Shown: positions 20,305 through 24,794 of the stretch, one piece after another
How positions within the stretch are numbered: the stretch's first letter is position 1
Layout: every line of letters begins with the position of its first letter
Assembly (NCBI GenBank): GCA_018819225.1
Contig: JAHJQN010000008.1
Coordinates: forward strand, 32,001-96,000
Origin: Candidatus Micrarchaeota archaeon
Lineage (GTDB): Archaea; Micrarchaeota; Micrarchaeia; Norongarragalinales; SBBD01
Direction of reading: 5' to 3'
DNA length: 64,000 bases
The notes under the pieces: model-generated
Told to the model about the DNA's origin: nothing
Databases searched by the model: none
What the model saw: the letters and a program-made list of their open reading frames with translations, nothing else
Translations under genes and position numbers: made by a program

Positions 20305-20625
20305 TTAATCGTACCGGGGTTGTCCGTGCGAACGCCGCGTGTGGGCACCCGTACTCGGATCCAAGGGACGGTAACCACCAAAGCGCTTCTTTTCGCGTGC
20401 GCGCTCCGCCATCTTCTTCTTTTTATCGAAGACGCGCAAGTGCTTTCCGCACGAAATGCAGTAGCAGACTTCACGCGTGATGCGCGGTACCCACTGGTCG
20501 TCGTACGCGTCCTGGCGTTCAACGGGGTTCTGAATCATGACCTTCTCGATGAAAACCGCTTTGTCTTTGCGCACGGCTCGGCCGCATTTGCTGCAATGAA
20601 CGAGCCGTTCTCTTCCTCTACCCAT
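20305..20625 (-). CDS. rps26e: 30S ribosomal protein S26e
   Basis: GRERLVHCSKCGRAVRKDKA...YCISCGKH zinc-binding pattern. Confidence 0.85.
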   Translation of the reverse strand: MGRGRERLVHCSKCGRAVRKDKAVFIEKVMIQNPVERQDAYDDQWVPRITREVCYCISCGKHLRVFDKKKKMAERAREKKRFGGYRPLDPSTGAHTRRSHGQPRYD

Positions 20626-20694: not shown

Positions 20695-22074
20695 CTAGTG
20701 CGAGTTATTGAGGAGTTCCAAGCGGATCTTGGAGAGCAACCGCTGTTTTTTCTGGCCCGGCTTTAATGCATGTTTGAGCACGTCATGCCAGGTACGCACG
20801 GGAATGATTTCCACTTGCTTCCGTTGCTGATCATCCAACACCAGGTCCCCAACCGTAGTTTCCGGTACGATAACGCGTTTGATGCCTGCTTCAATACACG
20901 CCTCCACTTTCTGCGTGACGCCTCCGATGGGAAGCACTTCCCCGCGAACGGAAAGAGAGCCGGTCATGCCCACGCTCTGATCAATCGGCACTTCCTCTAA
21001 AGCGGAAATGACGGCCGTTGCAACGGAGATGCTGGCGCTATCCCCTTCCACGCCTTCATACGTCTGCAAGAATTGAACGTGAATATCGTAACGGGAAATA
21101 TCCTTTCCAATATGCTTCTTGATTAACGCCGAAACATTTTCGACGGCTTCTTTCGCGATGTCTCCCAGCTTACCCGTGGCAATAATGCGCCCTTCCTCTC
21201 GGGAAGACGACGGAGCAACCTCCGCTACAATAGGCAATATAATACCGGAATCACCCATGACCGCCAGACCATTCACGCGGCCGACCTCATAGCCGTTCAC
21301 GAGAAACACGCGATAATCCTTTTTCACGTCGATGAATTGTTGCGCGCCCTGTTGTTCGAGCGTGCGCGCCAAGCGCCTCGCATCCTTCACTTGTTGACCG
21401 GAAACCATTTTGCTGTCTTGCTCGCGAGCCAAATCCCCGGCTGCGCGCACCAAACCCCCCAGGTCCCGCAGCTTAAGCGTCAACCGGTTTTTCCGACCGG
21501 CACGCTTGCGGGCCTCGTAAATGATTTCTTGAATCGCGTCTTGATCAAAATGAGGAATCTTGCCGTCCTTGCGAACCTCTTGAGCAATGAATTGAACGAT
21601 CTTGAACTGGTTCTCTGGCGTATCCGGAACGCTCTCCTCCATATATACTTCATAACCGTACCCGCGAATACGAGAACGCAACGCGGGATGCATGCGACGC
21701 AAATCCCGGTAATTACCCGCTGCAATCAAAACGAAATCGCACGGAACCGGATCCGTCTTGACTTGAGCACCAGAGGACATCTCGCTTTGACCCGTAATGC
21801 TGAATTTCTTCTCCTGAATGGCGGTCAATAGTTCCTGCTGCGCTTTCGGTCGAAGCATCGACACTTCATCAATAAAGAGAACGCCTTTGTTCGCACGGTG
21901 AATCGCTCCCGCCTCAATGCGCAAGTGCGCGGGAGTCCCTAAACCACCCGAATTGTGCATTAAGATGCCATTCGCGAAATAGTTGCCCGTAGACGTCGTC
22001 GCATTGTATACAAAACCATCGAATCGCCTGGACTGCTTGGATTCCACGCGAACGGATTGGACCTTTCGAGGCAT
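20695..22074 (-). CDS. lonB: C-terminal half of archaeal LonB protease preceded by a split-intein C-fragment (aa 1-41)
   Basis: aa 22-41 [20 protein letters not shown] (intein blocks F/G), then [24 protein letters not shown] (Walker B), GVEGDSAS (catalytic Ser), GGVTQK (catalytic Lys); no Walker A or TM region. Confidence 0.92.
21952..22074 (-). mobile_element. Intein C-fragment (IntC, 41 aa)
   Basis: Ends His-Asn followed by a Ser +1 nucleophile; block F VYN...NYFANG; net basic. Confidence 0.85.
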
Positions 22075-22085
22075 AACGCAGAGAA

Positions 22086-22122
22086 CACCTTACTAGAAAC
22101 TGACGCCAAACAGATTTATAAA
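22086..22122 (-). promoter_or_regulatory. TATA box and SD for the IntC-LonC gene
   Basis: TTTATAAA at 22115-22122 (palindromic, may also serve the divergent gene); AAGGTG about 11 nt upstream of ATG 22074. Confidence 0.55.
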
Positions 22123-22152: not shown

Positions 22153-22533
22153 ATGGCTATTGTCATTGAGGCGGGAATCCCGTTCGATTTCCTATTCTCC
22201 GTGTTATCGTTCGCGTTCTTCGGCATACTATCATTGTACTCGCTGCGCACCTATATATTCTTTAAAGAAAGCAGTCTCGCGCACCACCTGAAAATCATGT
22301 CCATAGGGCTCGCGTTGTTTACCTTCGCTAAAGCCGTGGAATTCAGCGAGTACATTTGGGGGGTATACCATTTACAGATCGTGAACGTGGTGTGGATGCT
22401 GGGCGCGCTCGTCATGTTATTCGGAATACTGGACTTCCGGAGAGAATTCCTGCGCTTCAAGTGGTTGAAGGAAATCCAGGACGAAATTGCGGTTGAAAAG
22501 AAGCGCTGGAGAAAAAACGAGAAAACCGACTAA
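22153..22533 (+). CDS. Hypothetical membrane protein (3 TM)
   Basis: Three hydrophobic segments, charged C-terminal tail. Confidence 0.7.
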   Translation: MAIVIEAGIPFDFLFSVLSFAFFGILSLYSLRTYIFFKESSLAHHLKIMSIGLALFTFAKAVEFSEYIWGVYHLQIVNVVWMLGALVMLFGILDFRREFLRFKWLKEIQDEIAVEKKRWRKNEKTD

Positions 22534-22608: not shown

Positions 22609-23499
22609 TCAGATCAAGATTTCCTTGCCCGCCTCGGCAATATCCACATTCGGAAACACTTCCTTCGCTTCGGCCAGCAACACGCTGAGATCCGCATACC
22701 GGTTGCTGAAATGCGTCAGTAAGAGCGCCTTCACTTTGGCCTTGCGTGCAGACTCGGCCGCCTGGCGGGCCGTCGAATGATATTTCTTTTTCGCCAACGA
22801 CTGGGAATCATCCGCAAACGTCGAATCGTGCACCAACAATTCCGCATCCTTTGCCGCGCGCTCAATCGCAGAACATGGAAGCGAATCCCCGGTGTAGACG
22901 ACGCGCTTGCCTTTTTTGACGTACGTCACATCCTCCAGCTTGATTTTCTTGCGGCCGATTTTCACGAATCCGTTATCCTGGATTTCCCGGAATAACTTCC
23001 CTTTGATGCCCAAGTCCTTGGCCTTCTTCTCATAAAACTTGTTGATCGGCTGTTCCTCAATGACGTAACCGAGCGCCTCGACCTTGTGATCGACTTTGAA
23101 AGCGGATACGCGAATCAGTTTATCCTCGAACACGCGCTTGCTCGAAGTCACTTCCACGATGCGGACCGGAAACTTCGGACGCAAATACCGCAGGGAAAGC
23201 ACGGTTCCCATCAATTCCTTGATCCCGTGCGGTCCGAACAGCAGCAATTCGTCGGTACGGTCATGCAAGTTCATCGTCTGAATGAGCCCAAAAATGCCCA
23301 GAATGTGATCGGCGTGCAAATGGGAAAAGAAAATAGCATTCACTTTCGCATACGAAATGCGGTACTTCATCATTTGACGTTGCGCGCCCTCACAACAGTC
23401 AAACAAGAACGTATTCCCACTCTTGATCGCAAAACACGAAGGCACCCGGCCCGGAGCCGGTACCGCACCCGAGTTTCCAAGAACCACCAAACGAAGCAT
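22609..23499 (-). CDS. rnz: Ribonuclease Z
   Basis: LFDCCEGAQRQ, SHLHADHILG, YTGDS, HDSTF, HST, THFSNRY. Confidence 0.93.
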   Translation of the reverse strand: MLRLVVLGNSGAVPAPGRVPSCFAIKSGNTFLFDCCEGAQRQMMKYRISYAKVNAIFFSHLHADHILGIFGLIQTMNLHDRTDELLLFGPHGIKELMGTVLSLRYLRPKFPVRIVEVTSSKRVFEDKLIRVSAFKVDHKVEALGYVIEEQPINKFYEKKAKDLGIKGKLFREIQDNGFVKIGRKKIKLEDVTYVKKGKRVVYTGDSLPCSAIERAAKDAELLVHDSTFADDSQSLAKKKYHSTARQAAESARKAKVKALLLTHFSNRYADLSVLLAEAKEVFPNVDIAEAGKEILI

Positions 23500-23510
23500 A
23501 TGCAAAAACC

Positions 23511-24794
23511 TCAAGCGATTCCGATCACGATGTCACACGCATTGGTACCCGTAGGACCCGTCACGATCACGTCCCCGGTTTTCTTCAAGAATGAGTGGGA
23601 GTCATTGTTCTTTAAATACTTGGCGGGTTTCAAGCGCTTTTTAGAGGCGCGGTCATTCGTGGAAGAATCCACGATGGCTCCGGCTGACGGACTCGATCCA
23701 TCTATTCCATCGGTTCCGGCACTTAATAGCACGCCGTTTTTCAACCAGGAGAGCGCGCTCAGGCAAAGCTCTTGATTCCGACCGCCGATCCCGTTTCCGG
23801 ACACCGTCACCGTCGTTTCACCGCCCGCAACAAACGTCAAGTTACGGTTGAGTAAATTCGCAAAGCGCTTTCCATGATCGCGGGCATCCCCAGTCAAACC
23901 GCGAAACACCCATGGACGCATGCCCTGCCGACGCAAAAAAGATGACGCCGCATCAATCACCGTATTATTGTCGCCGAGAACAAACGAGTGCGAGGAAACG
24001 CGAACGGATTGTTTGGAAGGAAAGCGCATTAATGTTTTCATGATGGGATCATTCGAGGAAAGATGCAAATAGCGTTTCAATAATAATCGCGCGCGCTGAT
24101 AATGATGCGTGCTGGAAACCGTGGGACCTGACGCGATATCCGCCAGAGAACCATGGACGACATCCGAAAGCACGAGATTCACTATCTTCGCGTTTTTGAA
24201 CGCCAGACCCAATTGACCGCCCTTGACTTGAGACAAACAGCGGCGCACTTCATTCAATTCGGATATCGAGGCGCCGCCACGCATTAATCCCTCGGAAATC
24301 CGTTGAACATCTTTCAATGAAAGGCCTTCCCGGGGAAGGGTCAACAAAGAGGAACCGCCTCCCGAAATTAAACAGACCACCACATCCTCTTTGGTTACTT
24401 CCGATGCAAGCGCAAGAATCTTTTGCGTCGCCGACACATTTTCTTTCGAAGGAAACGGGTGCGTACCCTCCAACAATTGAATTTTTTTCGTGCGAAAACG
24501 TTTTCGAGTTCCTTTTGGAACGATCACGATACCGGAAGTCACCGGCACCAATCGTTCAAAGGTTTCCGCCATGGCCCCCGATGCTTTCCCGAAACCGATC
24601 ACGAACACGCGCCCAACCGGAAACGGGTGGCCACGCACGACGAATTCGTTTCGCTTGAATTGAACAGAGGAACGCATCAATTGATCCGGCGAAATGCTTT
24701 CGAGACCAAGCTCAAAAGCCCTCAAAGCCAATTCCCGTCGCTTTCGATCGCCGTGCAATAGGGTTCCGCGAGAGCGGATGCTCATAATCTTCAC
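23511..24794 (-). CDS. Glycerate 2-kinase (DUF4147/MOFRL)
   Basis: GFGKAS, LISGGGSSL, SDV, IASGPT, GGETTV, GGRNQE, GTDGIDG, TGPTGTN. Confidence 0.92.
   Translation of the reverse strand: MKIMSIRSRGTLLHGDRKRRELALRAFELGLESISPDQLMRSSVQFKRNEFVVRGHPFPVGRVFVIGFGKASGAMAETFERLVPVTSGIVIVPKGTRKRFRTKKIQLLEGTHPFPSKENVSATQKILALASEVTKEDVVVCLISGGGSSLLTLPREGLSLKDVQRISEGLMRGGASISELNEVRRCLSQVKGGQLGLAFKNAKIVNLVLSDVVHGSLADIASGPTVSSTHHYQRARLLLKRYLHLSSNDPIMKTLMRFPSKQSVRVSSHSFVLGDNNTVIDAASSFLRRQGMRPWVFRGLTGDARDHGKRFANLLNRNLTFVAGGETTVTVSGNGIGGRNQELCLSALSWLKNGVLLSAGTDGIDGSSPSAGAIVDSSTNDRASKKRLKPAKYLKNNDSHSFLKKTGDVIVTGPTGTNACDIVIGIA

Follow-up and report, generated by a model that had tools for sequence, protein, structure and literature searches.

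How can a working LonB protease be made when the gene for its protease domain begins with the last residues of an intein and lacks the first half of the enzyme? This question is raised by a gene, hereafter IntC-LonC (a C-terminal intein fragment, IntC, fused to the C-terminal part of LonB), found in the 64,000-nucleotide window analyzed here, that is, the whole stretch of DNA at G000:C7:32001-96000. The source organism is a small, uncultured DPANN archaeon of the Micrarchaeota, and its genome (G000; 1.37 Mb in 8 contigs) is a metagenome-assembled draft with an estimated completeness of about 90%; both LonB halves described below lie well inside contig C7, which is 709 kb long. Our conclusion, to which we assign a probability of about 0.87, is that LonB of this archaeon is encoded by two genes and joined by protein trans-splicing, through a naturally split class-1 intein placed in pore loop-1 of LonB and broken at the canonical split site.

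The gene in the window encodes a 41-residue IntC ending in His-Asn, followed by Ser at position +1 and by LonB from pore loop-1 through the Ser-Lys protease domain to the C terminus (Table 1). The NCBIfam LonB model TIGR00764 (608 positions, cut-off 516.6 bits) aligned from position 194 to 607 with residues 39-451 of the protein at 664 bits, residues 6-44 gave weak matches to intein-containing models, and in a genome-wide scan positions 117-155 of the Pfam model Intein_splicing fell on the first 41 residues. Neither a Walker A region, nor the membrane hairpin, nor the N-terminal part of an intein was detected within this open reading frame (ORF) by Pfam or by motif reading. A sequence-only reading of the window had described the gene in these terms, and its details were borne out: the start of the protein, intein blocks F and G, the LonB portion and what it lacks, the gene's own ATG with a Shine-Dalgarno-like sequence and a TATA-like box, an unrelated divergent neighbor upstream, and an IntC charge count of six Lys/Arg versus two Asp/Glu.

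That reading had also postulated a separate gene elsewhere in the genome for the missing half, and a search of the genome with the LonB profile uncovered it. The gene, LonN-IntN, encodes 361 amino acids from its ATG and lies on the same contig as IntC-LonC, 89 kb away and on the opposite strand; the model match (C7:143490-144110, plus strand, model positions 4-202) is contained in a 381-codon open frame. Its product has, in this order, a Walker A motif (GTPGTGKS), two hydrophobic helices forming the membrane hairpin, an extein that ends in GDVKHDPFQ, and an N-terminal intein fragment (IntN) of 119 residues, after which the frame is closed by a stop codon. This IntN starts with Ser-Leu-Pro-Pro-Glu, contains an N-R-R-x-Y segment and a block B of the form Thr-Pro-Glu-His, and continues for about 25 more residues; no cysteine is present in either intein half. 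The two halves cover complementary parts of the Intein_splicing profile (positions 21-92 in the N-half and 117-155 in the C-half), and they are the only orphan intein pieces detected with this profile in the genome. The full set of archaeal LonB features, namely Walker A and Walker B with a membrane hairpin between them and a Ser-Lys protease, is obtained only when both genes are combined.

The sequence-only reading had allowed for an intact lonB elsewhere, which would have made the gene in the window a relic. No such gene was found when the LonB model was run against this genome of about 90% completeness. The only other strong match was a LonB-like AAA+ paralog of 479 amino acids (G000:C5:80996-82435, plus strand; L002:841-2280) that has Walker A, Walker B and the LonB lid, lacks both the membrane hairpin and the protease domain, and carries a Cys-x2-Cys...Cys-x2-Cys insert in place of the hairpin; in the relatives, it is often located near the RNase Z/LonB locus. 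We considered this paralog as a replacement for LonB and rejected it, since it is devoid of a protease domain and each of the 40 relatives examined has it, whether its LonB is split or not.

These relatives, which comprise 40 other genomes of the same order, indicated that the split is old. In the window's own family (f1; 11 genomes including G000), an N-half ending in IntN was found in all 10 other genomes, and the C-half was recovered in 8 of these 10, always at a separate place. One of them (G004) has a contig that ends before the start of the N-half and before the gene for aIF5A, while the other nine have an intact LonN-IntN. The aIF5A gene directly follows the N-half in 9/9 family relatives whose locus reaches it, an RNase Z-like gene precedes the C-half in five, and because these flanking genes are shared across the family, the arrangement must be older than the f1 radiation. 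A split LonB was also present in families f11 (G020, G028, G032 and G036) and f9 (G031 and G039). The remaining genomes of the order have either an intein-less LonB of 630-720 amino acids or a contiguous intein (G021, G026, G034 and probably G030); in intein-less LonB of relatives, HDP(F/L)Q stands immediately before SGGLGTP. Outside the order, the same split was found in metagenome-assembled genomes (MAGs) of Woesearchaeota/Nanoarchaeia, in adjacent, fractured and dispersed versions with Ser, Thr or Cys at position 1. Furthermore, a search of 1.84 billion cluster representatives retrieved at least 16 clusters (50% identity) of 335- to 415-residue proteins that align over the whole of LonN-IntN and end with IntN. 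The split is fixed in family f1 of the Micrarchaeota and widespread in DPANN archaea.

The residues expected at the two junctions are likewise retained. In all extracted ORFs, HDP(F/L/Y)Q is followed by Ser (once by Thr), and Asn is followed by SGGLGTP; the IntN measures 111-163 residues (111-124 in all but two), and the start ATG of the C-half gives an IntC of 30-50 residues. Alignment of 16 IntN and 16 IntC sequences revealed Ser at position 1 of IntN in 15 cases and Thr in one, Thr and His of block B in all 16, and an invariant N-R in the N-R-R-P-Y segment. In IntC, the terminal Asn and Ser+1 are present in 16/16, and Y23, N24, T26, T27, G30 and N31 of block F (Y-N..T-T..G-N) are invariant together with the terminal N41. 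The rate of synonymous substitution (dS) is saturated in every f1 pair; the ratio of nonsynonymous to synonymous substitution (dN/dS) of IntN, 0.09-0.47 where computable, is rough because of that saturation. Both halves are under long-term conservation and are homologous to contiguous Lon inteins at the same site. An unused IntN frame of 115 codons would not have stayed open with its catalytic residues intact across such divergence.

The sequence characters of a split intein are present: two genes, with a stop codon after IntN and an ATG preceded by an in-frame stop for IntC; a Ser nucleophile at position 1 and a T-x-x-H block B in IntN; and a terminal Asn followed by Ser+1 in IntC. We infer that the two halves associate and splice in the cell. 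The first gene would yield a membrane-anchored LonN (Walker A plus the two-helix hairpin) fused to the 119-residue IntN, and the second a LonC (the remainder of pore loop-1, Walker B, the lid and the Ser-Lys protease) headed by the 41-residue IntC. IntN and IntC would fold together into one HINT domain, in which Ser1 would begin an N-O acyl shift, the N-extein would be handed to Ser+1, and the terminal Asn would cyclise with release of the intein. An O-N shift would then form the peptide bond and restore the sequence HDPFQ-SGGLGTP, giving a full-length LonB of about 660 amino acids that is predicted to be competent for hexamer formation.

The position of the junction suggests why joining would matter. 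In an alignment with chain 4zpx_A, the LonB of Thermococcus onnurineus, the N-half can be followed as far as HDPFQS at index 213-218, which places the junction at index 217/218, and pore loop-1 of that enzyme comprises residues 209-232 (PMC9569914). Provided that chain index equals residue number, the splice junction would fall inside the substrate-translocating pore loop-1, between Walker A with the hairpin on one side and Walker B on the other. Because of this placement, unjoined halves would lack an intact translocation loop, and neither they nor a LonB that retained its intein should give a working unfoldase.

We also modeled IntN and IntC as a complex, extended by 11 and 12 extein residues, respectively, using a 16-row alignment for each. 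The model scored 0.84 versus 0.00 for the best of three controls, a result that likeness to solved split-intein complexes may explain; the mark that it reached is also reached by 58 of 80 solved complexes and by 2 of 110 mismatched pairs. The runs agreed in at least 84% of contacts, partner pLDDT (predicted local distance difference test) was at least 73, and the closest modeled contacts ran from the N-R-R segment of IntN to the Y-N-x-T-T strand of IntC. The model supports, and does not show, an association of IntN and IntC.

Several observations weigh against trans-splicing. Both halves are basic in f1 (net charge +14 to +18 for IntN and +1 to +4 for IntC; two f11 genomes have an acidic IntN), so the charge complementarity of DnaE type is absent there. 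The penultimate residue of IntC is His in 12 of the 16 relatives and another residue in the other four (Ser in 2, Arg in 1, Lys in 1), block F carries Asn at a position usually taken by Asp (PMC4031507), and IntN contains a single His, that of block B, so that the His of the NX motif seems to be missing. Since both f1 intein halves are basic, their association may not be self-driven; on the less likely reading of conditional assembly taken up below, it could need docking of LonC to the membrane-anchored LonN, complementation between AAA+ fragments, or acidic lipids. In our judgment, the charge and the single His do not speak strongly against splicing and leave room for a non-textbook mechanism of association.

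The same features bear on a two-subunit LonB made without splicing, in which the intein halves would act as a noncovalent clamp and the protease would work as a heteromer. A strong predicted IntN-IntC interface, the atypical residues just listed (Asn in block F, a variable penultimate His and no NX His) and the ability that AAA+ fragments could have to complement each other would all suit such an assembly. However, a clamp would not need Ser/Thr at position 1, Thr and His of block B or the terminal Asn, which are invariant over saturated divergence; an unremoved domain of 160 residues would sit within pore loop-1; and the Pyrococcus abyssi Lon intein, which has been studied for splicing, displays the same atypical residues. 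We regard the heteromer as improbable, and trans-splicing as the better account of the two genes.

It is still far less likely that the two genes are pseudogenes, that is, the decaying pieces of a lonB broken by a rearrangement inside its intein. The distance of 89 kb between halves on opposite strands would fit such a relic, as would the JGI gene call for the C-half, which begins at Met39 and leaves out IntC. Nevertheless, both frames are intact in all recovered copies, from the 11 family genomes and from other families, despite saturated dS, no other protease-bearing LonB was found in the genome, and most dispersed C-half genes of the relatives have a TATA-like box of their own, 30-50 nucleotides upstream. 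Met39 (window 21958-21960) is encoded by an ATG inside the frame, two codons ahead of the splice junction, and from it the JGI call predicts a protein of 421 amino acids. In the relatives, the corresponding residue is always Val or Cys, but the upstream ATG and the sequence of IntC are conserved; Met39 is for this reason unlikely to be the true start. Contig records were sought for the JGI version of the C-half, an independent assembly, and no record was found. An artefact of assembly or binning, in which a contiguous intein-containing lonB had been mis-joined, is the least credible explanation, even for a metagenome-assembled draft of 8 contigs: the stop codon that ends IntN and the ATG that opens IntC are seen again in 16 or more relatives assembled independently, the flanks are conserved (aIF5A follows the N-half, and RNase Z precedes the C-half), and both halves are embedded in one long contig. 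The misassembly for which the sequence-only reading had allowed upstream of the gene is not borne out by these data.

The proposed trans-splicing of LonB has precedents with which the present case may be compared. The split intein of Nanoarchaeum equitans PolB (Neq Pol) likewise belongs to an essential enzyme of a DPANN archaeon, is encoded by two distant genes, and uses Ser1 with a hydroxyl residue at +1, hence oxyester chemistry; its host is a DNA polymerase, in contrast to the protease considered here. To our knowledge, the Neq Pol split is known from one species, whereas the LonB split spans several families and two DPANN lineages. The cyanobacterial DnaE fragments have an IntN of about 100-120 residues and an IntC of about 35-40, and the LonB halves similarly combine a long IntN with a short IntC. 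The DnaE inteins (Ssp/Npu) also share with the LonB case far-apart genes, a split at the canonical site of endonuclease insertion, and fixation across a whole clade (PMC4760082). They differ in having Cys1/Cys+1 with an acidic IntN and a basic IntC, whereas in LonB the junction residues of G000 are Ser1/Ser+1 and both halves are basic in f1. The Neq Pol split intein is mentioned in PMC10189870, which also puts forward a His in the NX motif as the mark of Ser1 inteins. Cysteine-less split inteins that serve as engineering tools (for example the split PolB16 OarG, made fully cysteine-less by mutation, and Aes123 PolB1) resemble the LonB intein in combining Ser1 with Ser/Thr+1 (PMC10189870, PMC11923092); the NX-motif His, however, is not evident in LonB IntN, which has the N-R-R-P-Y segment in that region.

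The closest contiguous counterpart is the 333-residue Lon intein of Pyrococcus abyssi, inserted in the same host protein at exactly the same site (HDPFQ/C...KN/SGGLGTP), in keeping with the earlier reading, which had recognized SGGLGTP as the C-extein of the Thermococcales Lon intein site. This protein (981 amino acids) was among 150 proteins of at least 805 amino acids retrieved in a search for longer relatives, and position 1 in 103 contiguous LonB intein forms was Cys in 89, Thr in 10 and Ser in 4. The Thermococcales LonB inteins have related blocks F and G (..Y-N-.-T-T-..-G-N-...-N), with Asn at F:4 and often without the penultimate His. They differ from the G000 intein, which is divided over two genes, starts with Ser, and lacks both cysteine and an endonuclease, in being a single polypeptide with Cys1 and an endonuclease insert. 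The splicing mechanism of the Pyrococcus abyssi Lon intein has been studied biochemically (O'Brien 2010, as cited in PMC4031507), and the intein was also used in PMC3906313; the penultimate His and F:4 are assisting positions, F:4 being described as less conserved (PMC4031507). Since this intein has Y-N and K-N at the respective places, Asn at F:4 and a penultimate residue other than His belong to the traits of a family one member of which has been studied as a splicing intein, and they weigh less against splicing for that reason. Two inteins of known structure also matched the contiguous intein of G034, in alignments that include blocks B, F and G: that of Pho RadA (4e2u, E 2.9e-6) and the naturally split one of NrdJ-1 (8ubs, E 2.2e-5).

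The relatives also preserve what may be the steps by which the gene was broken. G034 has a contiguous mini-intein of about 165 residues and G021 a contiguous one enlarged by an insert of about 350 residues, both at the same LonB site, and the break between IntN and IntC coincides with the insertion loop of these inteins, which can be aligned on both sides of it. In G020, the two halves are encoded on one strand with a free-standing ORF of 344 amino acids between them, which is 35% identical to the insert of the G021 intein (E 2e-53); G041 likewise has a free-standing ORF at this place. For the G020 ORF, neither Pfam, searched up to E 10, nor the solved structures gave a match, and we call it endonuclease-like, a putative homing endonuclease, on account of its homology to the contiguous-intein insert and of LAGLIDADG-like motifs seen by eye. 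In G039, only a 70-residue remnant of the endonuclease-like ORF is left between the halves, along with an unrelated Cys-rich ORF of 124 amino acids (L034:3117-3491, minus strand) that has no Pfam match and sits where other genomes carry the endonuclease ORF. The layout of G020 and G041, that is, N-half, free-standing endonuclease-like ORF and C-half, is that of the "fractured genes" (Dassa et al. 2009, PMC2677866), which in contrast to a cellular protease are mainly phage enzymes of DNA synthesis and repair. The G000 locus departs from this layout, its halves being far apart with no endonuclease gene found; with the relatives' endonuclease-like ORF as the query, no homolog was detected in this incomplete genome. 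As the homing endonuclease appears to have been lost, the G000 intein is probably fixed rather than mobile. The series, which leads from a contiguous intein carrying an endonuclease through the fractured gene and the endonuclease remnant to dispersed halves, fits the gene-breaking model of split-intein origin. In a tree of intein cores, the Micrarchaeota split forms grouped with the G034 mini-intein (support 90/97), and the Woesearchaeota/Nanoarchaeia forms made up a separate clade; the tree is midpoint-rooted and most of its forks are weakly supported, and splitting may have occurred once or several times.

In the literature searched, no description of a split-intein Lon was found, in agreement with the sequence-only reading, which knew of none; most subscription journals were outside the scope of this search, so absence is no proof. 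Novikova et al. list 10 LonB inteins, all from Euryarchaeota and none described as split (PMC4760082), and the split inteins in PMC2677866 and PMC4760082 have hosts that act in the replication and repair of DNA and are in many cases phage enzymes. LonB would add a new host protein, since a core proteostasis enzyme of cellular organisms, the sole LonB of its genome, appears to depend on protein trans-splicing, and in reduced DPANN genomes this dependence appears to have persisted on the evolutionary time scale of a family. Current annotation misses the split: one N-half homolog that we looked up is named "ATP-binding protein", and the JGI call of the C-half omits IntC. It is doubtful, though conceivable, that trans-splicing makes the assembly of a membrane protease conditional, with active LonB tunable through separate expression of the halves; regulatory control of this kind is speculation. 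Equally tentative, and a separate matter, is the idea that these genes make up a natural cysteine-less Ser1/Ser+1 family with possibly orthogonal pairs. Split inteins that are efficient without cysteine are uncommon and in demand (PMC12707363); with its dozens of diverged Ser1/Ser+1 pairs, this family could become a tool for protein ligation under oxidising conditions.

Table 1. Features of the two LonB genes and their surroundings; positions refer to the window unless a contig is given.
Feature	Position	Strand	Basis
IntC-LonC gene, 459 aa	20695-22074	-	ORF call; TIGR00764; Pfam Lon_C, LonB_AAA-LID, AAA_32
IntC, 41 residues, blocks F and G, terminal His-Asn, cysteine-free	21952-22074	-	alignment to relatives; Pfam
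C-extein start SGGLGTP; Ser42 is the +1 nucleophile	21931-21951	-	relatives; intein-less LonB; Pyrococcus abyssi site
Walker B GVLFIDE, residues 64-70	21865-21885	-	sequence reading
GDSAS, residues 344-348, motif with catalytic Ser of the Lon protease domain	21031-21045	-	sequence; Pfam Lon_C, residues 262-438
GGVTQK, residues 384-389, motif with catalytic Lys	20908-20925	-	sequence; Pfam Lon_C
AAGGTG, Shine-Dalgarno-like, 11 nt before the ATG of IntC-LonC	22086-22091	-	sequence
In-frame TAA, five codons upstream of the ATG, closes the frame	22090-22092	-	sequence
TTTATAAA, TATA-like box, 40 nt before the ATG of IntC-LonC	22115-22122	-	sequence
Divergent 126-aa membrane-protein ORF, upstream neighbor, outside the LonB system, marks the rearranged junction	22153-22533	+	ORF; kept in G001, G002, G004
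RNase Z-like gene, synteny marker	22609-23514	-	locus comparison
LonN-IntN gene, 361 aa from ATG	G000:C7:143364-144449 (L003:1375-2460)	+	LonB profile search of genome

The surroundings of the two genes allow some steps of their separation to be outlined. In families f9 and f11, the RNase Z-like gene adjoins the N-half in divergent orientation, apparently the more ancient arrangement. A single inversion was considered as the origin of the f1 layout and rejected, because RNase Z adjoins the C-half in f1 and the N-half elsewhere, so that more than one rearrangement is needed; family f11 dispersed its LonB halves by a route different from that of f1. Directly downstream of the C-half in the window lies a gene for a ribosomal protein S26e-like protein (20305-20625, minus strand), and this pairing is kept in G001, G002 and G004. 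In two MAGs, G010 (contigs C49 and C54) and G031 (C47 and C41), two different IntC-LonC genes were present; the protein from the second G010 copy is identical to that of G009, so that strain mixture or contig sharing in the bins is a likelier source of the extra copies than true duplication. Apart from the split LonB, G000 has two contiguous intein-containing genes, at C5:93065-95821 (plus strand) and C5:11212-12543 (minus strand), in open frames of 1657 and 1392 amino acids.

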